From a virus (Duplodnaviria; Heunggongvirae; Uroviricota; Caudoviricetes): 33,679 nt of DNA. Position numbers and translations under genes: made by a program. Under the pieces are notes generated by a model. That model did no database searches. It saw only the letters and a program-made list of their open reading frames with translations, and had not been told where the DNA came from. Shown one piece after another: positions 9,329-33,679 of the stretch (position 1 is its first letter; each line of letters starts with the position of its first letter). The stretch is taken from IMG/VR virus record IMGVR_UViG_2541047882_000006; one strand, given 5' to 3'.

Positions 9329-10385
9329 GGCTTTGTTGAATAAATCAGATTTCGGGTAAGTCTCCCCCGTAGCGGGTTGTGTTTTCAGGCAATACGCACG
9401 CTTTCAGGCATACCTGCTTTCGTCATTTTGTTCAGCGCTCGTACCAGGGCCATAGCCTCCGCAACCTGACCATCGTAGTCACGCAGCGTCAGTGAACCCC
9501 CGAACAGCTGTTTTACCCGGTACATCGCCGTTTCCGCTATCGAGCGACGGTTGTAATCTGTTGTCCATTTCCACCGCGCATTACTCCCGGTCATTCGCTG
9601 ATTAGCCACTGCACTGTTACGGTCTGCATATTCACCGGGCCAGTAACCCGCACCTTTTCGGGGAGGGATAAGGGCGCTGATTTTCTTACGCCGCAGTTCA
9701 TCGTGACAGAGCCGGGTGTCGTAAGCGCCGTCTGCCGATGCTGCCCTGATTTTTCTGTGAGTCTGCCGGATAAGACCCGGGAAGGCTTCTGAGTCCGTCA
9801 CATTGTTCAGCGACAGGTCTGCACAGATGATTTCATGTGTTTTACTGTCAACGGCGAGATGCAGCTTACGCCAGATACGGCGGCGTTCCTGGCCATGCTT
9901 TTTGACTTTCCACTCGCCTTCACCGAAGACCTTCAGCCCGGTGGAATCAATTACCAGGTGTGCGATTTCACCCCGGGTGGGCGTTTTGAAACTGACATTA
10001 ACCGACTTTGCGCGCTTGCTGACACTGGTGTAATCCGGGCAGCGCAACGGAACATTCATCAGTGTAAAAATGGAATCAATAAAACCCTGTGCAGCCCGCA
10101 GGGTCAACCTGAACACGCGTTTAATGACCAGAACGGTGGTGATGGCGAGATCAGAATAGCGCTGAGGTCTTCCCCGTGATGAAGGCGTTGTCGACTCATA
10201 CCAGGCCTGAATGGCTTCATCATCCAGCCAGAAAGTTATGGAGCCACGGTTGATGAGGGCTTTATTGTAGGTGGGCCAGTTGGTGATTTTGAACTTTTGC
10301 TTTGCCACGGAACGGTCTGCGTTGTCGGGAAGATGCGTGATCTGATCCTTCAACTCAGCAAAAGTTCGATTTATTCAACAAAGCC
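9329..10385 (-). mobile_element. IS903 (IS5 family) insertion sequence, complete
   Basis: 1057 bp bounded by perfect 18-bp inverted repeats GGCTTTGTTGAATAAATC (9329-9346) and GATTTATTCAACAAAGCC (10368-10385); one transposase ORF; 9-bp direct target duplication; length and repeats match IS903 as I recall it. Confidence 0.85.
9385..10308 (-). CDS. IS903 transposase (DDE, IS5 family)
   Basis: Track ORF 9385-10353 (322 aa from a TTG). Starting at the in-frame GTG (VAKQKFKITNWPTYNK) gives 307 aa; C-terminus MTKAGMPESVRIA recognised as IS903 transposase. Confidence 0.8.
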   Translation of the reverse strand: MAKQKFKITNWPTYNKALINRGSITFWLDDEAIQAWYESTTPSSRGRPQRYSDLAITTVLVIKRVFRLTLRAAQGFIDSIFTLMNVPLRCPDYTSVSKRAKSVNVSFKTPTRGEIAHLVIDSTGLKVFGEGEWKVKKHGQERRRIWRKLHLAVDSKTHEIICADLSLNNVTDSEAFPGLIRQTHRKIRAASADGAYDTRLCHDELRRKKISALIPPRKGAGYWPGEYADRNSAVANQRMTGSNARWKWTTDYNRRSIAETAMYRVKQLFGGSLTLRDYDGQVAEAMALVRALNKMTKAGMPESVRIA

Positions 10386-18499: not shown

Positions 18500-18786
18500 A
18501 AATGACCTTTCTTTCTCCAGATTTCTTGTGTGCGAAAAACCCCTTCAGCATGCATCAGGCGCAATTCTTCTTTGGTGTAATCGCTGGTTTTTACCCGCCC
18601 GTCGATTAGATCGTGGCATGAGCTACAGGCTATCGCCGCCTGCATATCGTGTGGTTTTGTCGCTGTTCCGCACGTCCCCGCCAGCCTGTAATGCGCCAGC
18701 ACAGAGGTTTCGGGATTGTGATTGCAGTAGCCAGGGATTCTGATCTGGCACATCTGGCCTTTAGCCGCTTTACGTAAATTCACCAT
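18496..18786 (-). CDS. YbcO-like nin-region protein (DUF1364-type, Cys-rich)
   Basis: 96-aa track ORF; LRKAAKGQMCQIRIPGYCNHNPETSVLAH...IACSSCHD resembles DLP12 YbcO as recalled. Confidence 0.6.
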   Translation of the reverse strand: MVNLRKAAKGQMCQIRIPGYCNHNPETSVLAHYRLAGTCGTATKPHDMQAAIACSSCHDLIDGRVKTSDYTKEELRLMHAEGVFRTQEIWRKKGHL

Positions 18787-19385
18787 TACGCAAACTCCAG
18801 TAGTTGTGCGGCCACATTTTCAACTTCCTCCTGAGAGGAGAATTTACGGAACAGAATCCAGTTCCACAGCACATTCAGTACAGATTTATAAACCTGCTGA
18901 AACTCGACTTCGTCCATATTCGCAAAAGCGATGGATTTTGCCCGACGCCCACGGCTACCGTCCGGATAAATATGCTCGGTGTAAAATCCGGCCTGAATGG
19001 TTACCCACTCGCGGAAAGCCTCAAACGACTTTAGCAACGCCGTATCCCGGGTTCTACGAGTCGCAACGGTGTTAAGGTATTGCTCTGCGGCATCACTCAG
19101 GGCTGATGTGTGTTCCCGACCAACTGATTCGCACAGGTAATCCACGAAACCAGACAGCAGTTCTCGTTCGCGAGGCGTGATCGCCCCACCGACCGGAGTC
19201 CAGTAATCGAATCCCAGTTGCAGGAGTTTGAAAAAACGCTTGTGGAATGCGTAGTTACGCACACGCTTAAAGTCTGCGTGTATCCACTCACCTATTTTGA
19301 TTTGATGCAGAAAATCGCAACTCTCCGGCGTCGCCGGGAGAAGTAAACCAGAAGAGGTTTGTTTGACCAGTTGTATATGCGCCAT
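18786..19385 (-). CDS. nin-region phage protein (DUF1367-like), hypothetical
   Basis: 199-aa track ORF, stop overlapping the downstream gene start; family assignment from memory, uncertain. Confidence 0.45.
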   Translation of the reverse strand: MAHIQLVKQTSSGLLLPATPESCDFLHQIKIGEWIHADFKRVRNYAFHKRFFKLLQLGFDYWTPVGGAITPRERELLSGFVDYLCESVGREHTSALSDAAEQYLNTVATRRTRDTALLKSFEAFREWVTIQAGFYTEHIYPDGSRGRRAKSIAFANMDEVEFQQVYKSVLNVLWNWILFRKFSSQEEVENVAAQLLEFA

Positions 19386-19660
19386 TTCTCAATCTCTCGA
19401 TGGCGCAGTGCAGCAGATGCCAGTTGTTCAGGCTGACGTATAAAGTATAAATAAACTGGTTCCAGTGTAAAGCCCCCACATTGATGGAATAAAAATCAAA
19501 CAATAGATTGCTGGGATAAAAATACAACGCTTATTATTAAAAGCGGTTAGACAAATTAAATTTTAATGTTATGCAAATCTGCCAGATTAGCATAATATCT
19601 CATTTGAAAACCGCTGAAATAACAATCTTATCAGGATTAATCATATTAAGGTGAGTAAAT

Positions 19661-19747
19661 ATGGAAAACAACAAATCTGCACATTACGCTCCTTTTTTAT
19701 CTGTAATACTTTTTGTATTTTGTTGTGTATGGGCGGTATTTTTATAA
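19661..19747 (+). CDS. candidate small hydrophobic peptide (28 aa)
   Basis: ATG at 19661 preceded by AAGGTGAG 5 nt upstream; translates MENNKSAHYAPFLSVILFVFCCVWAVFL; ends just before a strong hairpin. Below the ORF-track size cutoff. Confidence 0.3.
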   Translation: MENNKSAHYAPFLSVILFVFCCVWAVFL

Positions 19748-19762
19748 AACACACCCACAAAT

Positions 19763-19792
19763 AAATCAAACCCGCTACAGCGGGTTTGATTT
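19763..19792. terminator. bidirectional intrinsic terminator between the small ORF (+) and the S8 protease gene (-)
   Basis: Perfect 13-bp inverted repeat AAATCAAACCCGC-taca-GCGGGTTTGATTT, flanked by A/T-rich sequence; convergent genes on either side. Confidence 0.55.
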
Positions 19793-19801
19793 ATATAGTT
19801 G

Positions 19802-22066
19802 TTATACGGAAACTGGCACACGAGCAGGCAATGGATAGTGAGCCCAGTTATTAGCATTTAAAGCTCTTACACCATCAGCATAAACTTGTGTGTTTCCATC
19901 TAATGATTTTAAAGTTACTACAATAGTTACAGGTAAAGGCTCCATTAAGGCCGGTTCATTCGCTCTCAACGTTGTTTTAGCCTGAAGAGCCCAGTTACCC
20001 GAAGTAATTCCTTTATTAAATGCCTTGCGATGAATTTTTACTGGTGACCACTTTCCACCATGCTCAATTTGAGCTCTCTCATATCCAGATTGACCGTTTT
20101 CTCCTTCCATAGGCACTTTTCCTTTTATAGTATTATTCTCAATTAAGCCAAAACTTAGCTCTACGTTCGCGCGAACATATTCACTGCCGGCATTAGGGTT
20201 TAGTGGTGGTGCATATGCAGCAGTAATTACAATCTCACCTTTAAATTTTCCATTTTGAATAAGTGCCGATGGTATGGGATAGTTTTCCTTTCTCCACCTC
20301 ACCCCAGGAACCAAGAATGTTTGGAAAATCAGAGTAAACCTATCATCACTATCATATAAGGTCTCAATAACCTCATTAGGAATTCCCGCTCCCAAATAGC
20401 GTCTTTCACTTGGCGAGTAATCAGGAGAAGATAATTGAGCGGAATGAATTAATAATGCTTTAATCAATGATGGTGAAACATTAAAGTCTGAATTAGTGGC
20501 TATTCTCTGCCATGTATGCGCAGCTAAACTTGCCACAATTGGAGCAGCAAAACTAGTACCAAAATTAGAGCAAAGCCTATTATCTGGCCCTACGACCTTT
20601 AAACTGCTTGCTCCTACATTCCAAGGTCTATGAACCCCACCGCCAGCATGGATTATATCTGGCTTTGGAGTAAATACAGGCCCAGGGCCACGACGAGTAT
20701 ATGGTGTCGGTGTTCCAATTTCACTTAAAGCATCATTAGCTTCCATATGAGAAACTGAACCAACTGTTAGTGCTCGGACTGACTCTCCAGGAGAGGAAAT
20801 TAAATCAGCACCTCCAAGCGGATCAGGATTTGGCCATGTACGTATAGGTTCATCTACATAATTACCTGCAGCAACTACAAACAAAATACCAAATTTATCG
20901 CTGAGCCGATCTAACTCCATCGCAAAATCACTAAACATCTGCTCATTACATGGTCCGCCTCCCAAAGACAAATTCCAGACTTTTATATCTGGTCTTTTAT
21001 TTACAGCATCTGCTAGCCTCAGAATTAAATCTGATATATAAGATCCATTTTCATCTAAAGCACAAACATCATGGATTTTAGATTTTGTATCAGGAATCCA
21101 TGGATGATTGTCATTTAAAAAATGAGCGCCTGATATCAATGAAGACACCATAGTCCCATGTTCATAACTCGTATCAGGAGGAATTACGTATGTTTCCCTA
21201 CTCACTACCCAAGGAGTAATTGTTGCCGCGATGGGGCTTACCCCAGTGTCAAATACAGCAACAATGGGTAATTCTTCTGATGGTACGGGAAAGCTATTTG
21301 TTTCAATGCCAACAGAATCACTTACACTAACCGGGAATGCTGAATATTTTGGTTCTGGAATTAACGTTCTTATACCCGGGTAATCAATGAGAATGTCTAA
21401 TATATATCTATCACTTGGGGATAAATCCATTATCCTTAATAAGGGAAGACCACATTTTTGTCTAATTTCATCATATTTAACTCCGTATTGTTCTAATATA
21501 GAAATAACGTTTTCATAGTTGTTGTAAGTTGCATCTTCACCTGTGTACTCAAATAGTCGTACAAGGATGTTTGATGATTCAAACAAACCATCAGTGCCTC
21601 CCGGAACCTTCCTATTCTCATCCCAAGGTTCAATGCGCTCAATCGCGCTTAGATTAGCCAAAATCGCTTTAATATTCCGATTTAAAATGACTGACTCTAA
21701 TACGTCAAAACAGCCGGCATGAGCAGCAACCAACATTTCATCTATTTTGGCATGACCGGCATTTTGCAATCCAGCCTCTTGAGCAATTTTGTTCGGCCTA
21801 TGCGTTTTGGCTATTCCCTGGTCTCTTAATTTGAAAACCAAAGTACCCAAGCTTCCAGGGTACTCTGAAAGTTTGGATTCTAAATAATGTTTACTGGTTG
21901 TTAAATTTCTTACTAGCCCTTGTCTATATTCGGCTGTTACATCAACCAATACCTTTGCCCCACCGCCAGCGTTTACTATTGCACCCAAGTCACTACTGGA
22001 AAAAGGGATTCTTAACGTTGGGTTTGTAACTTTTGCGTTACTAAACTGTGTACCCCTTCTGCTCAT
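19802..22066 (-). CDS. subtilisin-like serine protease (peptidase S8) with large N- and C-terminal extensions; IetS-like
   Basis: 754-aa track ORF; S8 motifs in order D (VAVFDTGVS, ~aa 273), H (YEHGTMVSS, ~303), N (VVAAGNY, ~402), S (GTSFAAPIVASLAAH, ~505); no N-terminal signal peptide; AGGAG ribosome-binding site; start overlaps the upstream ATPase gene by 26 nt. Confidence 0.8.
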   Translation of the reverse strand: MSRRGTQFSNAKVTNPTLRIPFSSSDLGAIVNAGGGAKVLVDVTAEYRQGLVRNLTTSKHYLESKLSEYPGSLGTLVFKLRDQGIAKTHRPNKIAQEAGLQNAGHAKIDEMLVAAHAGCFDVLESVILNRNIKAILANLSAIERIEPWDENRKVPGGTDGLFESSNILVRLFEYTGEDATYNNYENVISILEQYGVKYDEIRQKCGLPLLRIMDLSPSDRYILDILIDYPGIRTLIPEPKYSAFPVSVSDSVGIETNSFPVPSEELPIVAVFDTGVSPIAATITPWVVSRETYVIPPDTSYEHGTMVSSLISGAHFLNDNHPWIPDTKSKIHDVCALDENGSYISDLILRLADAVNKRPDIKVWNLSLGGGPCNEQMFSDFAMELDRLSDKFGILFVVAAGNYVDEPIRTWPNPDPLGGADLISSPGESVRALTVGSVSHMEANDALSEIGTPTPYTRRGPGPVFTPKPDIIHAGGGVHRPWNVGASSLKVVGPDNRLCSNFGTSFAAPIVASLAAHTWQRIATNSDFNVSPSLIKALLIHSAQLSSPDYSPSERRYLGAGIPNEVIETLYDSDDRFTLIFQTFLVPGVRWRKENYPIPSALIQNGKFKGEIVITAAYAPPLNPNAGSEYVRANVELSFGLIENNTIKGKVPMEGENGQSGYERAQIEHGGKWSPVKIHRKAFNKGITSGNWALQAKTTLRANEPALMEPLPVTIVVTLKSLDGNTQVYADGVRALNANNWAHYPLPARVPVSV

Positions 22067-23195
22067 ATGCTCCTGACTCCTTCAGAATGTTTGAAATTAC
22101 TCTTGATGTAAGTTTGTACAAATTAGCAAGAACTCTGATAGAAAATAATTTTTTATCTTTAGAACGTAACCAACGAATTTCATCTTCGTAAGTGCTTAAA
22201 TTTACACCTTCCATAAGCGATTGAGCAAGATACAAACGCCTATACAATTTGTGGTGATTTATCACACTTGCACCTTCAATAACTGCATCCCTACGTGCAT
22301 CCAAGCTCACCTGTTCAATTATTGCTCCGGATAATCCTTCCGATTTTCTTGATAAATCACTTAAATCTAGATCGCTACATATCATATTCTTTAAACGATT
22401 TTTCCAAATTAACTCTCTCTGATGTATGTCAGGCAGAGGCATTGGAATTCTGAAGCTAAATCGCCTCCAGATTGCAGGATCCAGAAGTTGCTCATGGTTA
22501 GTTGAGGCAATAATTACCGTATCCTCTGATGCCGCATCCATATTCTGCAATAGTGAAATGACAACTCGCTGAAGCTCACCTATATCTCTCTCATTACCTC
22601 TTGCTCCAGCTAAAGCATCAAATTCGTCTAAAAAAAGCACTGATGGCCTCTGCATTACATAATCGAAAACCTGTCTAAGATTTTTGCTGGTTTGTCCCAA
22701 TAAACTACTAATCAAAGTATCGCAACGCACTGTAAGAAGTGGAAAATCTAAGCGGGTAGCGATGTACTTAGATAACATAGTCTTACCTGTTCCTGGCTTT
22801 CCATACACGAGCATACGACTCGGCAATGCTGCATCAGCTTTAACAAACTCATCATAACGTTGAACATTAGTGATAAACTCTTCAACACGGGTACTGATTG
22901 CTGCAGGCAGAAAAATCTCTGAACTGTCTAATTTAGGATAACTGACATCAACAGTGTTGAGTCGACTATCAATATCTACCGGTAATGAGCCCAGAGATAT
23001 CCCACCTCCAGCCCTTTGAGCTCCTGCCAACGCCTGGGGAGCTCTAAGCAACCTTTCTCTTATCATTCTGGCTTGCTTGACCTCCCCTTTTTGTTCGAGC
23101 TTATCTGCCAGCAACCCAGCATAATTACTAGCCATCGAAGCATTTGCCTTTGTTGCACCTTCAATGATTTTTAACACTTCTGATAAATAATCCAT
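22041..23195 (-). CDS. AAA+ ATPase; IetA-like
   Basis: 384-aa track ORF; Walker A GKPGTGKT (~aa 132-139), Walker B VLFLDEFD (~185-192), sensor-1 IIASTNH, arginine pair WRRF; ~125-aa N-terminal and ~130-aa C-terminal non-ATPase regions. Confidence 0.8.
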   Translation of the reverse strand: MDYLSEVLKIIEGATKANASMASNYAGLLADKLEQKGEVKQARMIRERLLRAPQALAGAQRAGGGISLGSLPVDIDSRLNTVDVSYPKLDSSEIFLPAAISTRVEEFITNVQRYDEFVKADAALPSRMLVYGKPGTGKTMLSKYIATRLDFPLLTVRCDTLISSLLGQTSKNLRQVFDYVMQRPSVLFLDEFDALAGARGNERDIGELQRVVISLLQNMDAASEDTVIIASTNHEQLLDPAIWRRFSFRIPMPLPDIHQRELIWKNRLKNMICSDLDLSDLSRKSEGLSGAIIEQVSLDARRDAVIEGASVINHHKLYRRLYLAQSLMEGVNLSTYEDEIRWLRSKDKKLFSIRVLANLYKLTSRVISNILKESGAYEQKGYTV

Positions 23196-23388
23196 TCAAC
23201 ACTCCCACAACAAAAAGCCACAGCAATCAAAAAATGAGCACGCAGAATCAAAATACTCTCTAATCGTAACGCATTTTGAGATTTTTGATACGTTTTTTTG
23301 GGATTATGTAACGCCAAATGGTCATTTTGTGTCAGAAAAATAAATCTTAGTACCGAGAATATGTAGCTTCCATCCTTCATCGTTCTAT

Positions 23389-23835
23389 TCATCCCTGATC
23401 TCCAAGCCTCTCTCGAAAACCATTCTGATAAAACGCCAGCACACGCTGCATAACTTCGCTCTTCCGGCACTCGCGACAGATTATGTTCAGACGCCTGTCG
23501 TAGCGGCGTATTTCTCCGTCTGGTAATGACCAGATAAGGTCCGGATCAACCACAGATGGTTTCTTCACCTTTGCCCTAGATAGTTTTTTGCGGGCATTTT
23601 GCCAGTCCTTACGAGCCTGTTCAGACGGGAATAACCCGTAACCAGAGTTGTATACATCGCCACTGGCAACCAGCTCTCTGGCGAGAACGCTCATCAGATA
23701 TCTTGTCGCACCTGTCTTGGCTTCCAGTTGCCGTAACGTCTCGCGCCCACTCCGGCGTACTAGTTCAACAACCTGCCCTTTAATTTTTTCCCGCTCTTCT
23801 TGTGTAAATACTTTTGCCATAAGCGCCTCCGGCAA
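23389..23835 (-). CDS. hypothetical protein (nin region)
   Basis: 148-aa track ORF on the same strand upstream of the ATPase gene; backbone-like GC; no recognised motifs. Confidence 0.4.
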   Translation of the reverse strand: MPEALMAKVFTQEEREKIKGQVVELVRRSGRETLRQLEAKTGATRYLMSVLARELVASGDVYNSGYGLFPSEQARKDWQNARKKLSRAKVKKPSVVDPDLIWSLPDGEIRRYDRRLNIICRECRKSEVMQRVLAFYQNGFRERLGDQG

Positions 23836-23996
23836 TCACTTTTCCGATACAACACGGCGGGAAGAATCAGTAATCTGTCGAACAATATCCCGGTGCTTGT
23901 TCAGCTCCCGCAGCGCGGCGCAGACTCGCTCCCACTTCTGGACATGATTTTTCGCCCGACGCAGTTCACGGTTTGCCATATGCAGCGATGGTAAAA

Positions 23997-24248
23997 TCAG
24001 GTTATCCGCTTGCGTTTCAGTAAACGATGGCAACGACTGCACAATGTCCGCCACAGTTTCTGTTTTAATATCTTCCTGTGTTGCAGCTTCCTGTACTGGC
24101 AGGTGTACGCGCTTTTATCAACGAAACCAGCCTTTTTCAGTTCCCATAGTTCGTTCAGCACTTCTTCACGGCTGATATCAAGTCGCGCAGCAAGTTCTAT
24201 GGATGTAGCTTTTCCCATTGCTTTCAGTGCGTCAAAAACAGTCTCCAT
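23997..24248 (-). CDS. hypothetical small winged-helix-like protein
   Basis: Track ORF 23997-24299; start moved to [43 protein letters not shown], preceded by GGGAGA; HTH-like segment. Confidence 0.4.
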
Positions 24249-24270
24249 TAAATTTTTCTCCCGGTAAAAA

Positions 24271-24810
24271 TTACTTCGCAATTCCTGGCTGGACGACATT
24301 CGGACGCCAGCTCTCCCAGTTAAAATTCACCCATCGCCCGCCGTTCATGGTCATGCGATCCATAATCCTCTCGCCGAGCAATGTTTTCATGGCCTCATAA
24401 TTCAGGTTTGTCAGCATCCCCACGCTGCGCATCGACGCTGTCCGGCGATCAACAATCTGGTGCAGCACCACCTGCTCGTTTTTTGTCTCGCGCTGAATGC
24501 CAATTTCATCAAGAACCAGCAGATCCACTTGGCACAGTTCCCGCAAAAATTTTTCGCCTGATTGCCCGTCGTCATAGCTGGCGTGTAGGGCACTCATGAC
24601 ATCAGCCACGGTAACCACAATCACTGTCTGGCCATCTTTCAGCAGGCGATTCCCGATAGCCGCCGCCAGATGGTTTTTTCCGGTACCAGGTTTTCCGCTG
24701 AACGCAAAATTTGTACATCGAAGATGCAGAGTCGGTGACGCAGCTCGCGCGGAAGGATTGCCAGAATTGCTGGGATCAGCTTCTGAATTTTTTCTCTTTG
24801 CGTTTTCGTT
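24271..24810 (-). pseudogene. DnaC-like helicase loader (Rac YdaV-type), 5'-truncated
   Basis: Frame open from a stop at 24811-24813 with no ATG/TTG and no GTG before 24624. Walker A FSGKPGTGKNHLAAAI and the downstream segment (DLLVLDEIG, IVDRR, GMLTN, GERIMDRM) closely match E. coli DnaC as I recall it, but only ~22 codons lie upstream of Walker A and do not resemble DnaC. Confidence 0.65.
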
Positions 24811-24995
24811 TCACCTTTCAACCAACGGTGATAGATATTCTGCTGATTGTTCCAGTCCTTGCCTGGAACCAGGGGCAATTCGCCGCCCCCCTGGCGCAGA
24901 TATTCTTCAGTAATTGCATTGGCTACCCATGCCTGCCCTTTTTCGGCTGCTAGGGCAAACAACACTGATTCGATGTGCTCATGCTTGATTTTCAT
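24639..24995 (-). CDS. YdaT-like protein, possibly C-terminally altered by a deletion junction
   Basis: 118-aa track ORF directly downstream of ydaS; N-terminal MKIKHEHIESVLFALAAEKGQ; 3' end overlaps the DnaC-like frame in another frame. Confidence 0.45.
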   Translation of the reverse strand: MKIKHEHIESVLFALAAEKGQAWVANAITEEYLRQGGGELPLVPGKDWNNQQNIYHRWLKGETKTQREKIQKLIPAILAILPRELRHRLCIFDVQILRSAENLVPEKTIWRRLSGIAC

Positions 24996-25017
24996 GAATC
25001 ATTTGCCTCTTGATGTT

Positions 25018-25314
25018 TCAGGTATGATCAAATGAGGATTTGTTACTGTCATTTAGTTGCTTCACTGACATATTCTGCGAACAACATGCCGAACGTCGTA
25101 AATATGACCAGTCAATATCAGGACGAAGTTCTTCGCACAGAACCTCACCTCTTGTTGCACGTTCAATTGCTGGACATCTCTCGGCAGGCAATTGACGTAC
25201 CCCTTTGATCCATTGATTTACGCTTGGAGGTGATACACCTAAAAGCCTAGCCATTGCTGATTGCCCACCGACAACAGCACAAGCTTGCTTGAATGAATAG
25301 TTCTCTTTTTTCAT
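25018..25314 (-). CDS. ydaS: Cro/CI-type HTH regulator YdaS (Rac)
   Basis: 98-aa track ORF; HTH MARLLGVSPPSVNQWIKG; divergent from racR across an operator-rich spacer; recognised as K-12 YdaS. Confidence 0.8.
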   Translation of the reverse strand: MKKENYSFKQACAVVGGQSAMARLLGVSPPSVNQWIKGVRQLPAERCPAIERATRGEVLCEELRPDIDWSYLRRSACCSQNMSVKQLNDSNKSSFDHT

Positions 25315-25339
25315 CGAATGAACTCCAAAAACACACAGA

Positions 25340-25430
25340 AATATTAGGCGACGCCTAACGCAATTGTCAATAGGCTGTGCCTAATGCGGTAAGGGTAGGG
25401 ATTGCCTAATGTAATGCGCATAGGAGAATA
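25340..25430. promoter_or_regulatory. divergent racR/ydaS control region with palindromic operator-like sites
   Basis: TTAGGCGaCGCCTAA (25344-25358), ATTGtCAAT (~25363-25371), TAGGCtgtGCCTA (25371-25383) and further GCCTAA half-sites in the 123-bp spacer between the two start codons. Confidence 0.6.
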
Positions 25431-25437
25431 TTAAGCA

Positions 25438-25914
25438 ATGCTTAGTGGTAAAGACTTAGGCCGAGCGATAGAGCAGGCCATTAACAAAAAAATCGCATCG
25501 GGATCCGTCAAATCAAAGGCGGAGGTCGCACGCCACTTCAAAGTCCAACCACCATCAATTTATGACTGGATTAAGAAAGGCTCTATAAGTAAAGATAAAC
25601 TTCCAGAATTATGGCGTTTCTTTTCTGATGTTGTTGGTCCAGAGCATTGGGGGCTTAACGAATACCCCATACCAACCCCCACCAATTCAGATACAAAAAG
25701 TGAACTTTTAGATATAAACAACCTTTATCAAGCAGCCTCTGATGAAATAAGAGCGATTGTAGCTTTCCTGTTATCTGGAAATGCTACAGAACCAGATTGG
25801 GTTGACCACGATGTTCGCGCCTATATAGCAGCGATGGAAATGAAAGTGGGTAAGTATCTGAAAGCTCTAGAATCTGAACGGAAAAGCCAGAACATCACAA
25901 AAACTGGAACTTAA
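25438..25914 (+). CDS. racR: Rac prophage repressor RacR
   Basis: 158-aa track ORF, recognised as K-12 RacR (same length as recalled); HTH near the N-terminus. Confidence 0.85.
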   Translation: MLSGKDLGRAIEQAINKKIASGSVKSKAEVARHFKVQPPSIYDWIKKGSISKDKLPELWRFFSDVVGPEHWGLNEYPIPTPTNSDTKSELLDINNLYQAASDEIRAIVAFLLSGNATEPDWVDHDVRAYIAAMEMKVGKYLKALESERKSQNITKTGT

Positions 25915-25989
25915 ACTTATATGGTCTGACGGAAAACTCCTGGATTCCGTTATTTAACCCCCCCATCACTTTCTGCTGTCGCCATCACC

Positions 25990-26045
25990 TATTAGGTTAC
26001 GCTCAAAACATTAGGCATAGCCTATTGACAATCAATTAGGCATTA
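25990..26045. promoter_or_regulatory. second operator-like cluster downstream of racR (candidate leftward-operon operator/promoter)
   Basis: TAGGCataGCCTA (26012-26024), ATTGAcaaTCAAT (26024-26036) and TTAGGCAT (26036-26043): same half-site family as the racR/ydaS spacer. Confidence 0.5.
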
Positions 26046-26367
26046 CCTATAGTTCCAGCATACCACCCACCCCGCCCCACAGAACGCCGGGCAATACTTC
26101 GAGTTACCAGGCAGTGGTAAGGGGTTAAGTAGCCAGCCCGAGGCGTATGAATATGACGGCGGGATTCAAATTTTGCAGTGCAGCAGTTAGTTCCGCCACC
26201 CGGCGTTAAGGGGAGAGATAAGATGGTGCATTACGAAGTAGTTCAGTATTTGATGGATTGTTGCGGTATCACTTACAACTAGGCTGTGCAGGCTTTACGC
26301 AGCAACGACTGGGATCTCTGGCAGGCAGAAGTCGCTATACGTAGCAACAAGATGTGAGATTCGCAAA

Positions 26368-26523
26368 ATGCAAAAAATCGACCTCGGCAACAACGAATCC
26401 CTGGTGTGCGGCGTGTTCCCCAACCAGGATGGAACGTTCACTGCCATGACGTATACCAAAAGCAAAACATTTAAAACCGAAACTGGTGCGCGCCGATGGT
26501 TGGAGAAGCACACAGTAAGCTAA
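26368..26523 (+). CDS. small Rac protein (YdaF/YdaG-like, 51 aa)
   Basis: ATG at ~26368; translates MQKIDLGNNESLVCGVFPNQDGTFTAMTYTKSKTFKTETGARRWLEKHTVS; convergent with sieB, 3' ends overlapping. Below the track cutoff. Confidence 0.5.
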   Translation: MQKIDLGNNESLVCGVFPNQDGTFTAMTYTKSKTFKTETGARRWLEKHTVS

Positions 26524-27008
26524 CGATTAAAACGTCTACTCCTGCTGTTCCAGAATAACTTCATAAAATGGGAGTATTTTTCGGTGACGAGATAATAAGA
26601 ACAGTTTGCGCTATCACTCTGATGTTGAATGATGCCCTTCCGTTCTAATTTTTTCATAACCGGGTTACGGCAAGGAGAAGTGATAATAAGATTTCCTGTT
26701 TTAAGGAAATCTTTAAATACAGCGATTTCTTTCTCAGATAAACGAAGCAATACTCGTTGCTCTGGTAGTAATGAATAATGCTTTTGAATATGTGCTCGCA
26801 ATCTTGAGAAGGAAATGGCGACCACGAAAGAAAAGGCAAAAACGATAATCTGAAAGAGCCAAGGTATTTCAGTATAAGCATTGAATGCGACAGTAAACTC
26901 TTTCGGTATCAGCCAGAGAGTGAGACCAAAAATGATAATCGTATACATAAGTCTTTCGAGTGGCTCGTTAGCAAAAAGTTTCAACAATGGAGTAAATGCA
27001 TCCAACAT
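26520..27008 (-). CDS. sieB: superinfection exclusion protein B
   Basis: Track ORF 26520-27131; start placed at MLDAFTPLLKLFANEPLERLMYTIIIFGLTLWLIP to give the 162-aa K-12 SieB; membrane protein. Confidence 0.85.
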   Translation of the reverse strand: MLDAFTPLLKLFANEPLERLMYTIIIFGLTLWLIPKEFTVAFNAYTEIPWLFQIIVFAFSFVVAISFSRLRAHIQKHYSLLPEQRVLLRLSEKEIAVFKDFLKTGNLIITSPCRNPVMKKLERKGIIQHQSDSANCSYYLVTEKYSHFMKLFWNSRSRRFNR

Positions 27009-27225
27009 ATCAATAACTCTCAACTGTAAGGGTATTGAAATGTTAACACAAGCTCTCGCTGTAGGGGTATAGCCGAGACCACCGAAGCCCGGAGGTGGTG
27101 AAATAAAACCGGGCACAACACGAAGGCGCATTTCCGATATCCATAAAGAGTCGGTCTTGTCTGTTAAATTTAAATGGTGGGAGTGCGCCTCCGGTTGTAA
27201 ATAACGACATTGCTGTGTGTAGTCC

Positions 27226-27290
27226 TGGCGGCATCAGTTTTTTTCTTGAAGTTCGGCTGATGTCCGCCCTTTTTAAAGTGAATTTTGTGA
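27226..27290 (+). terminator. hairpin plus T-run in the sieB-kilR intergenic region; possible terminator or regulatory RNA element
   Basis: Imperfect inverted repeat GGCGGCATCAG ... CTGATGTCCGCC followed by CTTTTTAAAG; approximate coordinates. Confidence 0.25.
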
Positions 27291-27449
27291 TGCGGTGAAT
27301 GCGGCTAAGCGCACGTGGCACAGTTAAAAGTCATGTTAGTCCTTATTGGTTTGGGTGGGAAAGCCGACTGTAATTGTTAACTGGTTGCAGTCACCTGGAG
27401 GCACCAGGCACCGCATCAACAAAGTTCATTTGTAAAAATGGAGATAATT

Positions 27450-27671
27450 ATGATTGCACATCACTTCGGAACTGATGAAATACCACGTCAGTGTGTGACT
27501 CCTGGCGATTATGTTCTTCATGAAGGCCGGACATATATTGCCTCGGCAAACAATATTAAAAAGCGAAAACTATATATTCGTAACCTGACCACAAAAACAT
27601 GCATTACTGACCGCATGATTAAAGTCTTCCTCGGTCGTGATGGTTTACCTGTAAAGGCGGAGTCATGGTGA
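27450..27671 (+). CDS. kilR: killing protein KilR (cell-division inhibitor)
   Basis: Track ORF 27438-27671; start at [14 protein letters not shown] gives the 73-aa K-12 KilR. Confidence 0.85.
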
Positions 27672-27841
27672 TGACTAAGAAAATAAAATGTGCTTACCAC
27701 CTTTGCAAAAAAGACGTTGAAGAAAGCAAAGCTATTGAAAGAATGCTTCACTTCATGCACGGGATTTTATCAAAAGACGAACCGAGAAAATATTGCAGTG
27801 AAGCTTGTGCCGAAAAAGACCAGATGGCACATGAACTTTAA
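27671..27841 (+). CDS. ydaE: small Cys-rich protein YdaE (56 aa)
   Basis: ATG overlaps the kilR stop (TGATGA); translates [56 protein letters not shown] (C-x4-C ... C-x3-C). Below the track cutoff. Confidence 0.7.
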   Translation: MTKKIKCAYHLCKKDVEESKAIERMLHFMHGILSKDEPRKYCSEACAEKDQMAHEL

Positions 27842-27915
27842 TTAATTGACTATTCGAAACTGAATTTATGCCAGAAATGGCAGGTATTCGCTCAACCTTA
27901 ATTAAGGAGAAAAAC

Positions 27916-28191
27916 ATGATTACCAATTATGAAGCCACTGTTGTAACTACCGATGACATTGTTCACGAGGTGAATCTGGAAGGAAAGCGCATTGGCTACG
28001 TAATTAAAACAGAAAATAAAGAAACCCCATTCACTGTGGTTGATATCGATGGTCCATCAGGCAACGTAAAAACACTTGATGAAGGTGTCAAAAAAATGTG
28101 CCTGGTGCATATCGGAAAGAATCTGCCCGCAGAAAAAAAAGCCGAATTTCTGGCAACTCTAATTGCAATGAAATTAAAAGATGAAATCTGA
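27916..28191 (+). CDS. racC: RacC
   Basis: Track ORF 27868-28191; start at MITNYEATVVTT preceded by AAGGAG; 91 aa, recognised as K-12 RacC. Confidence 0.8.
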   Translation: MITNYEATVVTTDDIVHEVNLEGKRIGYVIKTENKETPFTVVDIDGPSGNVKTLDEGVKKMCLVHIGKNLPAEKKAEFLATLIAMKLKDEI

Positions 28192-28292
28192 AAGAAATAG
28201 CCTGCGTATGGCGCAGGCTATGAACAGTGTGTATCCGGCAAGATCATTCACTGAACAAAACGAATTTTAATCTGAGTTGAGGTTAAAAAACA

Positions 28293-30893
28293 ATGAGCAC
28301 AAAACCACTCTTCCTGTTACGGAAAGCGAAAAAATCATCCGGTGAACCTGACGTCGTCCTGTGGGCAAGCAACGATTTTGAATCGACCTGTGCCACTCTG
28401 GACTACCTGATCGTTAAGTCAGGTAAAAAACTGAGCAGCTATTTTAAAGCTGTTGCCACGAATTTTCCTGTCGTTAATGACCTGCCCGCTGAAGGTGAGA
28501 TCGATTTTACCTGGAGTGAACGCTATCAACTCAGCAAAGACTCCATGACATGGGAACTAAAACCGGGAGCAGCACCAGACAACGCTCACTATCAAGGCAA
28601 TACCAACGTCAACGGCGAAGACATGACTGAGATTGAGGAGAATATGCTACTCCCAATTTCTGGCCAGGAACTGCCCATTCGTTGGCTTGCTCAACACGGC
28701 AGCGAAAAACCGGTAACGCACGTTTCACGCGACGGACTCCAGGCATTACACATTGCTCGGGCTGAAGAACTACCGGCTGTTACTGCCCTGGCTGTTTCCC
28801 ACAAAACCAGCCTGCTCGACCCGCTGGAAATTCGCGAACTCCACAAACTGGTTCGTGACACTGACAAAGTTTTCCCTAATCCTGGTAATTCAAACCTGGG
28901 ACTGATAACTGCTTTTTTCGAAGCATACCTGAACGCTGACTACACCGATCGAGGACTGCTGACAAAAGAGTGGATGAAGGGTAATCGTGTTTCACACATC
29001 ACTCGCACGGCTTCCGGTGCTAATGCTGGCGGCGGAAACCTCACCGATCGCGGCGAAGGTTTCGTACACGATCTGACGTCACTGGCGCGCGACGTAGCCA
29101 CTGGCGTACTGGCCCGTTCAATGGATCTGGACATCTATAACCTTCATCCGGCACACGCTAAACGCATTGAGGAAATTATCGCTGAAAATAAACCGCCCTT
29201 TTCTGTTTTCCGCGACAAATTCATCACCATGCCTGGCGGGTTGGATTATTCCCGCGCCATCGTGGTTGCGTCCGTAAAAGAAGCACCAATTGGGATCGAG
29301 GTCATCCCCGCGCACGTCACTGAATATCTGAACAAAGTACTGACTGAAACCGATCATGCCAACCCTGATCCGGAAATCGTGGATATTGCCTGCGGTCGCT
29401 CCTCTGCCCCGATGCCGCAGCGAGTAACAGAAGAAGGAAAACAGGATGATGAAGAAAAACCGCAACCATCTGGAACAACGGCAGTTGAACAGGGAGAGGC
29501 TGAAACAATGGAACCGGACGCAACTGAACATCATCAGGACACGCAGCCGCTGGATGCTCAGTCACAGGTAAATTCTGTTGATGCGAAATATCAGGAACTG
29601 CGGGCAGAACTCCATGAAGCCCGGAAAAACATTCCATCAAAAAATCCTGTCGATGCCGATAAATTGCTTGCTGCATCACGTGGTGAATTTGTTGACGGAA
29701 TTAGCGACCCGAACGATCCGAAATGGGTAAAGGGGATCCAGACTCGCGATTGTGTGTACCAGAACCAGCCAGAAACGGAAAAAACCAGCCCAGATATGAA
29801 TCAACCTGAGCCAGTAGTGCAACAGGAACCGGAAATAGCCTGCAATGCCTGCGGCCAGACTGGCGGGGATAACTGCCCTGACTGTGGTGCGGTGATGGGC
29901 GACGCAACATACCAGGAAACATTCGATGAAGAGAGTCAGGTTGAAGCTAAGGAAAATGATCCGGAGGAAATGGAAGGCGCTGAACATCCGCACAATGAGA
30001 ATGCTGGCAGCGATCCGCATCGCGATTGCAGTGATGAAACTGGCGAAGTCGCAGATCCCGTAATCGTAGAAGACATAGAGCCAGGTATTTATTACGGAAT
30101 TTCGAATGAGAATTACCACGCGGGTCCCGGTATCAGTAAGTCTCAGCTCGATGACATTGCTGATACTCCGGCACTATATTTGTGGCGTAAAAATGCCCCC
30201 GTGGACACCACAAAGACAAAAACGCTCGATTTAGGAACTGCTTTCCACTGCCGGGTACTTGAACCGGAAGAATTCAGTAACCGCTTTATCGTAGCACCTG
30301 AATTTAACCGCCGTACAAACGCCGGAAAAGAAGAAGAGAAAGCGTTTCTGATGGAATGCGCAAGCACAGGAAAAACGGTTATCACTGCGGAAGAAGGCCG
30401 GAAAATTGAACTCATGTATCAAAGCGTTATGGCTTTGCCGCTGGGGCAATGGCTTGTTGAAAGCGCCGGACACGCTGAATCATCAATTTACTGGGAAGAT
30501 CCTGAAACAGGAATTTTGTGTCGGTGCCGTCCGGACAAAATTATCCCTGAATTTCACTGGATCATGGACGTGAAAACTACGGCGGATATTCAACGATTCA
30601 AAACCGCTTATTACGACTACCGCTATCACGTTCAGGATGCATTCTACAGTGACGGTTATGAAGCACAGTTTGGAGTGCAGCCAACTTTCGTTTTTCTGGT
30701 TGCCAGCACAACTATTGAATGCGGACGTTATCCGGTTGAAATTTTCATGATGGGCGAAGAAGCAAAACTGGCAGGTCAACAGGAATATCACCGCAATCTG
30801 CGAACCCTGTCTGACTGCCTGAATACCGATGAATGGCCAGCTATTAAGACATTATCACTGCCCCGCTGGGCTAAGGAATATGCAAATGACTAA
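28293..30893 (+). CDS. recE: exodeoxyribonuclease VIII (RecE)
   Basis: 866-aa track ORF, same length as K-12 RecE; C-terminal nuclease domain; 3' end overlaps the recT start. Confidence 0.95.
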
Positions 30894-31695
30894 GCAACCA
30901 CCAATCGCAAAAGCCGATCTGCAAAAAACTCAGGGAAACCGTGCACCAGCAGCAGTTAAAAATAGCGACGTGATTAGTTTTATTAACCAGCCATCAATGA
31001 AAGAGCAACTGGCAGCAGCTCTTCCACGCCATATGACGGCTGAACGTATGATCCGTATCGCCACCACAGAAATTCGTAAAGTTCCGGCGTTAGGAAACTG
31101 TGACACTATGAGTTTTGTCAGTGCGATCGTACAGTGTTCACAGCTCGGACTTGAGCCAGGTAGCGCCCTCGGTCATGCATATTTACTGCCTTTTGGTAAT
31201 AAAAACGAAAAGAGCGGTAAAAAGAACGTTCAGCTAATCATTGGCTATCGCGGCATGATTGATCTGGCTCGCCGTTCTGGTCAAATCGCCAGCCTGTCAG
31301 CCCGTGTTGTCCGTGAAGGTGACGAGTTTAGCTTCGAATTTGGCCTTGATGAAAAGTTAATACACCGCCCGGGAGAAAACGAAGATGCCCCGGTTACCCA
31401 CGTCTATGCTGTCGCAAGACTGAAAGACGGAGGTACTCAGTTTGAAGTTATGACGCGCAAACAGATTGAGCTGGTGCGCAGCCTGAGTAAAGCTGGTAAT
31501 AACGGGCCGTGGGTAACTCACTGGGAAGAAATGGCAAAGAAAACGGCTATTCGTCGCCTGTTCAAATATCTGCCCGTATCAATTGAGATCCAGCGTGCAG
31601 TATCAATGGATGAAAAGGAACCACTGACAATCGATCCTGCAGATTCCTCTGTATTAACCGGGGAATACAGTGTAATCGATAATTCAGAGGAATAA
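30886..31695 (+). CDS. recT: single-strand annealing recombinase RecT
   Basis: Track ORF 30829-31695; start at [18 protein letters not shown] gives 269 aa as in K-12 RecT; overlaps the recE stop by 8 nt (ATGACTAA). Confidence 0.95.
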
Positions 31696-31751
31696 TTCAG
31701 CCTGGCGGTGTAATGCACCGCCAACTTGAAATATTTTTTATGAGAAAAATT

Positions 31752-31946
31752 ATGAGATATGACAATGTTAAACCATGTCCATTTTGTGGTTGTCCATCAG
31801 TAACGGTGAAAGCCATTTCAGGATATTACCGAGCGAAGTGTAACGGATGCGAATCCCGAACCGGTTATGGTGGAAGTGAAAAAGAAGCACTCGAAAGATG
31901 GAATAAACGAACCACTGGAAATAATAATGGAGGTGTTCATGTATAA
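31752..31946 (+). CDS. ralR: restriction alleviation protein / type I toxin RalR (Lar)
   Basis: Track ORF 31713-31946; start at MRYDNVKPCPFCGCPSVTVKA gives the 64-aa K-12 RalR; Cys-rich. Confidence 0.85.
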   Translation: MRYDNVKPCPFCGCPSVTVKAISGYYRAKCNGCESRTGYGGSEKEALERWNKRTTGNNNGGVHV

Positions 31947-32148
31947 AATTACCGCCACTATTGAAAAGGAAGGTGGCACTCCTACTAACTGGACAAGATA
32001 TTCAAAATCTAAACTAACGAAATCAGAATGCGAAAAAATGCTCTCAGGTAAAAAAGAAGCAGGCGTTTCCAGAGAGCAGAAAGTAAAACTGATAAATTTT
32101 AATTGCGAGAAACTTCAGTCCTCGAGAATTGCATTGTATTCAAATTAA
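31939..32148 (+). CDS. ydaC: YdaC
   Basis: Track ORF 31867-32148; start at MYKITATIEKEGG preceded by GGAGG; overlaps the ralR stop. Confidence 0.7.
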   Translation: MYKITATIEKEGGTPTNWTRYSKSKLTKSECEKMLSGKKEAGVSREQKVKLINFNCEKLQSSRIALYSN

Positions 32149-32226
32149 AACTTCATAGCTGATTATTAATAATCAACATCGGGCGTCAATTTCAGTCTAA
32201 CATTGGCGCCTGCCAGAGGTGATGCG

Positions 32227-32442
32227 ATGGCACAAGTAATCTTTAATGAAGAGTGGATGGTTGAATACGGCCTGATGCTTCGCACTGGTCTGGGGGCCAG
32301 ACAAATTGAAGCATACCGCCAGAACTGTTGGGTGGAGGGCTTCCACTTCAAACGAGTATCTCCTTTAGGTAAGCCAGACAGCAAACGAGGGATTATCTGG
32401 TACAACTATCCAAAGATAAATCAGTTTATCAAAGACTCATGA
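32227..32442 (+). CDS. xisR: excisionase (XisR / YdaQ)
   Basis: Track ORF 32203-32442; start at [15 protein letters not shown]; lies immediately upstream of the integrase gene. Confidence 0.75.
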
Positions 32443-32443
32443 T

Positions 32444-33679
32444 ATGTCTAAATTACCAACAGGTGTCGAGATTAGAGGTAGATACATTCGCATCTGGTTC
32501 ATGTTTCGAGGAAAACGATGTCGGGAAACATTAAAAGGCTGGGAGATTACAAACAGTAATATTAAAAAGGCCGGAAATTTAAGAGCGCTGATAGTTCATG
32601 AAATAAACTCCGGTGAATTTGAGTATTTAAGACGTTTTCCCCAGTCCAGCACTGGGGCAAAAATGGTGACAACGAGAGTCATAAAAACGTTCGGAGAGCT
32701 TTGTGATATCTGGACAAAAATTAAAGAGACAGAGTTAACAACAAACACAATGAAGAAAACGAAATCACAATTAAAAACACTCAGAATAATAATTTGTGAA
32801 AGTACCCCGATATCACATATTCGTTATAGCGATATCTTAAACTACCGGAATGAACTGCTGCATGGAGAAACGCTTTACCTGGATAATCCAAGATCCAACA
32901 AAAAAGGAAGAACCGTGCGCACAGTTGATAACTATATCGCCCTGCTCTGTTCGCTGTTGCGTTTTGCGTATCAGTCGGGATTTATATCAACCAAACCATT
33001 TGAAGGAGTAAAAAAATTACAGCGAAACAGAATAAAGCCTGATCCGTTATCTAAAACAGAATTCAATGCATTAATGGAAAGTGAAAAAGGACAGAGCCAG
33101 AACTTGTGGAAATTTGCCGTTTACTCAGGACTTCGTCACGGGGAACTGGCAGCTCTGGCGTGGGAGGATGTGGATCTCGAAAAGGGAATAGTGAATGTCA
33201 GAAGAAACCTGACGATACTTGATATGTTCGGTCCCCCAAAAACAAATGCCGGGATCCGAACAGTAACACTACTGCAGCCTGCTCTTGAAGCACTGAAGGA
33301 GCAATACAAACTGACCGGGCATCATCGCAAAAGCGAAATCACCTTTTATCATCGGGAGTACGGCAGAACCGAAAAGCAAAAACTGCATTTTGTTTTCATG
33401 CCCAGGGTGTGTAACGGAAAACAAAAACCTTATTACTCGGTAAGCAGTTTGGGGGCAAGGTGGAATGCAGCAGTAAAACGTGCTGGTATTCGCCGCCGTA
33501 ATCCGTACCATACGCGACATACTTTTGCCTGCTGGCTGTTGACGGCAGGAGCGAACCCGGCATTTATAGCCAGCCAAATGGGGCATGAAACTGCGCAGAT
33601 GGTGTATGAAATTTACGGTATGTGGATTGATGACATGAACGACGAACAGATAGCCATGTTGAATGCGCGGTTATCGTAG
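32444..33679 (+). CDS. intR: tyrosine site-specific integrase IntR
   Basis: 411-aa track ORF, same length as K-12 IntR; C-terminal catalytic region (HTRHTFACWLL, HETAQMVYEIYG); the window ends at its stop codon. Confidence 0.9.
   Translation: MSKLPTGVEIRGRYIRIWFMFRGKRCRETLKGWEITNSNIKKAGNLRALIVHEINSGEFEYLRRFPQSSTGAKMVTTRVIKTFGELCDIWTKIKETELTTNTMKKTKSQLKTLRIIICESTPISHIRYSDILNYRNELLHGETLYLDNPRSNKKGRTVRTVDNYIALLCSLLRFAYQSGFISTKPFEGVKKLQRNRIKPDPLSKTEFNALMESEKGQSQNLWKFAVYSGLRHGELAALAWEDVDLEKGIVNVRRNLTILDMFGPPKTNAGIRTVTLLQPALEALKEQYKLTGHHRKSEITFYHREYGRTEKQKLHFVFMPRVCNGKQKPYYSVSSLGARWNAAVKRAGIRRRNPYHTRHTFACWLLTAGANPAFIASQMGHETAQMVYEIYGMWIDDMNDEQIAMLNARLS

Follow-up and report, generated by a model that had tools for sequence, protein, structure and literature searches.

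The replication module of the prophage described here very probably owes its present state to an illegitimate deletion of 1,320 bp that has left a pseudogenised remnant in a decaying Rac-type element. The deletion maps to 24717|24718 of the 33,679-nucleotide stretch of viral DNA that was analysed (the window). A single illegitimate-recombination event at this site explains three lesions together: it has truncated ydaT, removed ydaU and beheaded ydaV. Only pseudogene fragments remain of these genes; the loss is specific to one lineage and amounts to ordinary decay of a cryptic prophage.

Judged from its sequence, the window is a Rac-type lambdoid prophage that is integrated beside ttcA and matches E. 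coli UMEA 3150-1. A scaffold of this strain (GCA_000460335.1) is 100 % identical over window positions 18639-30995. From racR to intR, window 24717-33679 is collinear in blastn with the Rac-type prophage of strain SCU-316 at 99.9 % identity, and in SCU-316 intR abuts ttcA. The Rac-type gene order is present, with racR / ydaS-ydaT at one end and kilR-recE-recT-xisR-intR beside ttcA at the other, and all of these reading frames are open. For comparison we used loci from K-12 (L009), SCU-316 (L004), SCU-104 (L003), PK8568 (L002) and a full-length Rac-like prophage (L010); the intact near-identical prophages that were aligned to the window are those of SCU-316, SCU-104 and NCTC9082, and K-12 was aligned as well. 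The early-right operon of a Rac-type prophage runs ydaS-ydaT-ydaU-ydaV-DUF1627-DUF977. According to the list of open reading frames and the annotation of the relatives, the Cro-like gene ydaS is intact in the window (25018..25314, minus strand), as is the divergently oriented repressor gene racR (25438..25914, plus strand), and the intergenic region between the two is retained. The final gene of the operon, a DUF977 / Ren-like gene, is intact too (23389..23820, minus strand), and the left arm has been kept with kilR, recET and xis/int, with Int and Xis intact. The Rac prophage of K-12 has the same gene order, orientation and ttcA site, and its racR, ydaS, YdaT-box, kilR, recET and xis/int are all retained in the window. 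In K-12, however, ydaT, ydaU and ydaV are intact and almost all late genes have been lost, whereas in the window some late genes are still present (tape measure, lysis genes, trkG), alongside the genes of the IetAS defence system.

The extent of the deletion can be read directly from the blastn alignment to SCU-316. Window 24100-24717 corresponds to L004 7175-7792 and window 24717-33679 to L004 9113-18075; the interval that is absent from the window, L004 7793-9112, is exactly 1,320 bp long. In the annotation of the SCU-316 locus this interval is made up of 144 nt from the 3' end of ydaT (codons 94-140 and the stop), a 12-nt spacer, the 858 bp of ydaU, a 6-nt spacer and 300 nt from the 5' end of ydaV (codons 1-100), which add up to 1,320. 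The ydaU gene lies wholly inside it and is gone entirely, and no ydaU is found between ydaT and ydaV in the window. Codon 93 of ydaT is now followed, out of frame, by codon 101 of ydaV. The earlier note on this DNA had proposed that a deletion took out the ydaU equivalent together with the beginning of the loader gene, and had placed the junction around 24700-24720; alignment to K-12, SCU-316, SCU-104 and NCTC9082 confirms the deletion, and the actual junction falls within that bracket.

On one side of the junction the deletion leaves a chimeric ydaT' frame of 118 aa (24639..24995, minus strand), which was delimited by alignment to the YdaT of K-12 and SCU-316 and which matches Pfam PF06254 with 39.7 bits. 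Its first part is native YdaT, residues 1-93 (24995-24717), with 100 % identity to the K-12 protein; ydaV DNA read out of frame then supplies 25 more residues (VQILRSAENLVPEKTIWRRLSGIAC) before the frame stops. A residue-for-residue match has been deposited from UMEA 3150-1 as ERB17801.1, labelled 'phage protein' in GenBank. YdaT carries the PHROGs label 'CII-like transcriptional activator', and its family of CII-like regulators is represented in the PDB by 8bt1/3c4r. The POU-type helix-turn-helix DNA-binding domain is present in the chimera, including the recognition-helix residues H56/R57. A pattern search also found the YdaT-box retained (ATGATTCATGAAAATCAA on the coding strand; 24985..25002, minus strand), overlapping the ydaT start codon; this site has been defined experimentally (PMC11879457). 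What the chimera lacks is the tetramerisation helix alpha6, with residues 94-140 replaced by the 25 unrelated ones. In Rac YdaT, residues 95-128 make up this C-terminal helix, which serves as the scaffold of the tetramer, and oligomerisation is disrupted by L107P/A110P (PMC11879457). The tetramer is held together as a four-helix bundle of alpha6 helices, on which DNA binding depends (PMC11879457, PMC9986795). Residues 1-96 of the YdaT of CP-933P, which comprise the POU domain only, are monomeric and show no DNA binding in EMSA (PMC9986795). Because the native sequence stops at residue 93, alpha6 is gone and the homologous 1-96 construct is monomeric, ydaT has probably been inactivated too; the claim that the element keeps racR, ydaS and a ydaT-like gene thus holds for the intact racR and ydaS, but not for ydaT. 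YdaT' would then be a monomeric POU domain, inactive as CII-like activator and as toxic factor, and the element would have lost both the activation of racR transcription by YdaT and the toxicity of YdaT on derepression. Both the CP-933P 1-96 protein and Rac YdaT L107P/A110P are without a functional alpha6, like YdaT', and serve as experimental analogues of it. They are engineered, whereas YdaT' is natural and has 25 unrelated residues appended, and the CP-933P protein shares only about 30 % identity with the YdaT of Rac.

On the other side of the junction lies ydaV' (24271..24717, minus strand), codons 101-248 and the stop, as defined by translation, by alignment to K-12 and SCU-316 YdaV and by PF01695. 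Homology to YdaV begins abruptly at C101 and runs to the natural stop, and residues 101-248 are about 99 % identical to K-12. Intact YdaV aligns over its full length with E. coli DnaC (6qel, E=1e-76); the isolated N-terminal fragment of DnaC (6kza) aligns with residues 2-57 of YdaV, which PHROGs labels 'DnaC-like helicase loader'. The N-terminal domain of DnaC is the DnaB-binding domain; in ydaV' this domain is absent, as it lies inside the deleted residues 1-100. Set against DnaC / IstB-type AAA+ loaders, ydaV' keeps in its frame Walker A (GKPGTGK, 24696-24676, minus strand), Walker B (LVLDEIG, 24519-24499, minus strand) and what else belongs to the AAA+ core, but it lacks the N-terminal 100 residues. 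Moreover, the reading frame shows Walker A to be undeliverable from any start codon. Behind a TGA stop (24813-24811) the frame passes through 31 non-homologous codons of ydaT coding DNA (24718..24813, minus strand), in which no ATG, GTG or TTG occurs; the sole near-cognate codon is CTG 24729, and on reading the sequence we saw no GGAGG-like Shine-Dalgarno upstream of it. The first ATG, GTG or TTG in the frame is GTG 24624, equivalent to V132 of intact YdaV, which gives a product of 117 aa, while gene callers started ydaV' at ATG 24597 (M141, 108 aa); both starts are downstream of Walker A. The PF01695 score is 68.5 bits for the 179-codon open frame and 36.2 bits for the 117-aa frame from GTG, at a cut-off of 24.1. 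The loader-family profile is hence matched, but a DnaB-binding domain and a translatable Walker A together with Walker B are missing.

Much of this had been anticipated in the earlier note, which described a DnaC-like frame open from a stop at 24811 without a usable start before 24624, and a YdaT-like frame that ends inside it; our translation of both frames agrees, with the stop a TGA at 24811-24813, the DnaC-like frame open down to 24271 and the YdaT-like frame ending at 24639. Its count of about 22 non-homologous codons in front of Walker A has to be corrected to 31, followed by 7 homologous codons (CTNFAFS), and the roughly 80 residues it assigned to this part of the family fall short of the 107 that precede Walker A in intact YdaV. 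As a separate matter, a -1 frameshift that would join YdaT' to YdaV via the A6 run in the Walker A codons was rejected on inspection of the frames, which contain no canonical slippery heptamer; after a slip at this run most of Walker A (GKPGTG) stays in the wrong frame.

One may ask whether the two remnants are functional novelties, with YdaT(1-93) plus 25 residues acting as an attenuated or dominant-negative regulator, or the YdaV fragment of 108-117 aa modulating host DnaC/DnaB. The chimeric frame does keep its native promoter, its ribosome-binding context, the YdaT-box and a complete DNA-binding domain, and the allele persists in several isolates. Nevertheless we consider such a role very unlikely. 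The POU domain of the CP-933P homologue, taken alone, behaves as the monomeric, non-binding protein described above (PMC9986795), the YdaV fragment is without Walker A and its candidate starts are without an obvious Shine-Dalgarno, and the adjacent gene has likewise been disrupted by a deletion that shifts its frame, as is typical of neutral decay.

The nature of the join bears on a further alternative. At 24717|24718 the microhomology is 1 nt: base 24717 is a single common 'A'/'T' that can be assigned to either side, and there is no further homology. The flanks are 99.8-100 % identical to the intact relatives and collinear with them on both sides, and with a gap of exactly 1,320 bp between them, coincidence need not be considered. 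The comparison shows one out-of-frame, homology-independent event. Recombination between two lambdoid prophages with different replication modules would instead make the region a mosaic, which we hold to be highly improbable. Rac-type prophages are indeed mosaic, many genomes have an unrelated initiator between ydaT and ydaV (hits covering 70-75 %), and the two flanks differ in their identity to NCTC9082 (100 % vs 97.9 %). Both flanks are, however, 99.8-99.9 % identical to and collinear with one and the same relative, SCU-316, and the join is out of frame, lies mid-gene on both sides and has no common homology, a configuration that homologous exchange would not give. No repeats or IS element were found at the end points of this deletion or of a second, smaller one nearby, where microhomology amounts to only 1 nt and 0 nt, respectively, and the mechanism therefore stays at illegitimate recombination, unspecified.

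The allele is genuine, though restricted to a small lineage. An exact-protein look-up in NCBI and Logan assemblies found the junction reading frames in five contigs, with at least three slightly different sequences. The junction of the 1,320-bp deletion and that of the smaller one (24099|24100) are both present in GCA_000460335.1, in GCA_016685915.1 (2 SNPs from the window in 12.4 kb) and in the Logan assemblies SRR11462841 (1 SNP) and SRR958583. A search for carriers of 24099|24100 alone, which would have given the order of the two deletions, returned the same five contigs with both junctions. Among 5,426 complete E. coli genomes neither junction was found, which would fit a sequencing or assembly artefact, either a frameshift error or a collapsed assembly. 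This explanation is hardly credible, as the gap amounts to 1,320 bp and not to an indel of 1-2 nt, the 1-nt microhomology offers no repeat to cause a collapse, and the same junction appears in separately assembled data sets, with some contigs 1-2 SNPs from the window. A frameshift from sequencing error was one of two readings that the earlier note had set against its own proposal; the other, a naturally short DnaC-like loader with a non-canonical start upstream of Walker A, is practically negligible. In its favour, 38 codons of open frame precede Walker A, with the in-frame CTG 24729 among them. However, what lies upstream of the remnant is coding DNA of ydaT (the 31 codons before C101 are 100 % identical to K-12 ydaT and out of frame), relatives that are 99.8 % identical in the retained part encode a 248-aa protein, the usual start codons and a Shine-Dalgarno at the CTG are wanting, and the product would be without the DnaB-binding N-terminal domain.

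The same module has been damaged in other strains as well. At least 80 % of ydaV-ydaU-ydaT is kept contiguously in 722 of the 5,426 genomes. PK8568 (L002 4319-4606) and SZQ1 have an independent, different deletion in ydaU/ydaV; compared with the window, PK8568 has kept ydaT at full length together with pieces of ydaU and of ydaV, and the end points differ. In SCU-104 (L003 6121-6867) ydaV has an internal stop, and this prophage also has a stop in recE and a frameshift in intR. The Rac-type ydaU/ydaV module has been hit repeatedly and independently, and the window adds one example. These repeated hits agree with the idea that prophage domestication entails the loss of replication and toxic early genes, among other functions.

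The protein encoded by the missing ydaU belongs to the family DUF1376 (PF07120) and has the PHROGs label 'primosomal protein', and a 'replication initiation O-like' match covers its residues 111-259. In the intact relatives AGGTGTTCAAACA occurs twice without mismatch in the middle of ydaU, with the copies 33 bp apart, and a palindromic variant, GGTGTTTGAACA, lies nearby. This iteron-like cluster (L004 8450-8570, absent from the window) lies beside a stretch of 32 % GC, the lowest of the region. The repeats were picked post hoc, and two exact 13-mers are no more than suggestive; the cluster is a candidate for the Rac origin oriJ. Likewise, ori-lambda lies inside gene O. A search of the literature for the mapped position of oriJ returned, in the portions of the sources that were accessible, an active origin in Rac without coordinates (PMC3945230; reference list of PMC11014345). 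With the initiator and the loader gone, and the origin probably gone as well, the element would no longer be able to initiate its own replication. The earlier note had drawn this conclusion, and soundly, but the prophage is defective in any case, since it has also lost head, tail and terminase genes. Another lambdoid prophage in the same genome could supply replication functions in trans. The organisation of intact Rac is similar to O-P-ori of lambda in that an initiator and loader pair lies downstream of cro/cII-type genes, with the candidate origin in the Rac initiator gene. The Rac proteins are, however, unrelated in sequence to O and P, except for the O-like match over YdaU 111-259, and the loader is a DnaC paralogue in Rac and P in lambda.

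Decay in the window extends beyond the replication module. The smaller deletion, of 349 bp, sits 618 bp from the 1,320-bp deletion and is blunt, with 0 nt of microhomology at 24099|24100, and frameshifting. It has broken the DUF1627 gene (remnant 23836..24248, minus strand, from alignment to the relatives), of which 49 native N-terminal codons followed by a frameshift (83-aa ORF, 24248-23997) and a detached C-terminal ORF of 72 aa (24054-23836) are left. Compared with the full-length Rac-like prophage (L010), the window lacks two blocks, which together come to about 15 kb and held genes for head, tail and terminase. The first, of ~6.2 kb, is missing at window ~2611-2621 (L010 3621->9846), where the alignment blocks overlap by 11 bases; it held most of the N-terminal part of the tail fibre, IS200C, lom and most of gpJ. 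The second, of ~9.3 kb (L010 16682->25998), extends from the tail tube over head and portal to the large terminase. An IS5-family element of ~1,057 bp (window ~9329-10385) adjoins this second gap, and an IS-associated adjacent deletion is a plausible origin of the loss. The 349-bp deletion and the large losses of morphogenesis genes attest to general prophage decay.

More speculatively, the loss of replication and toxic functions may have been selectively favoured. The host is harmed both by unscheduled replication of a resident prophage and by toxicity of its early genes, in analogy to 'replicative killing' by lambda and the RK- survivors, in which the loss of functions has abolished prophage-initiated replication (PMC6022878). 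It seems unlikely to us that the deletion was a domestication step that disarmed two host-killing activities, YdaT toxicity and in-situ replication, in one event, with the POU domain of YdaT' perhaps acting as a weak competitor for YdaT-boxes in other Rac-like prophages. Int and Xis are intact here, so that the argument from replicative killing is weaker than for non-excisable lambda constructs, the adjacent frameshifting deletion looks like neutral decay, and with a handful of carriers selection and drift are indistinguishable. RacR/YdaS immunity, RecET, KilR, SieB and the IetAS defence genes are retained alongside the deletion.

The practical value lies in annotation: ERB17801.1 and the 108-aa IstB-like ORF are best recorded as pseudogene fragments, the former of ydaT and the latter of ydaV, and the Rac element of the window should be scored as replication-defective; no new question is opened by it. 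Directly downstream of the early-right operon lies an intact anti-phage defence pair on the minus strand (19802-23195), the AAA+ ATPase IetA and the S8 peptidase IetS, detected by PADLOC with E=9e-143 and 2e-300 and named iteA/iteS in RefSeq; a literature search on IteA/IteS returned unrelated papers only. In the interval between racR and ydaF a 44-codon 'phage protein' ORF (26223-26357, plus strand), intact in SCU-316, has an internal stop. Finally, the sieB frame (26520-27131, minus strand) appears as a 203-aa ORF in the list of reading frames and in some calls and as 162 aa (26520-27008) in RefSeq, a difference in length that looks like an annotation ambiguity only.
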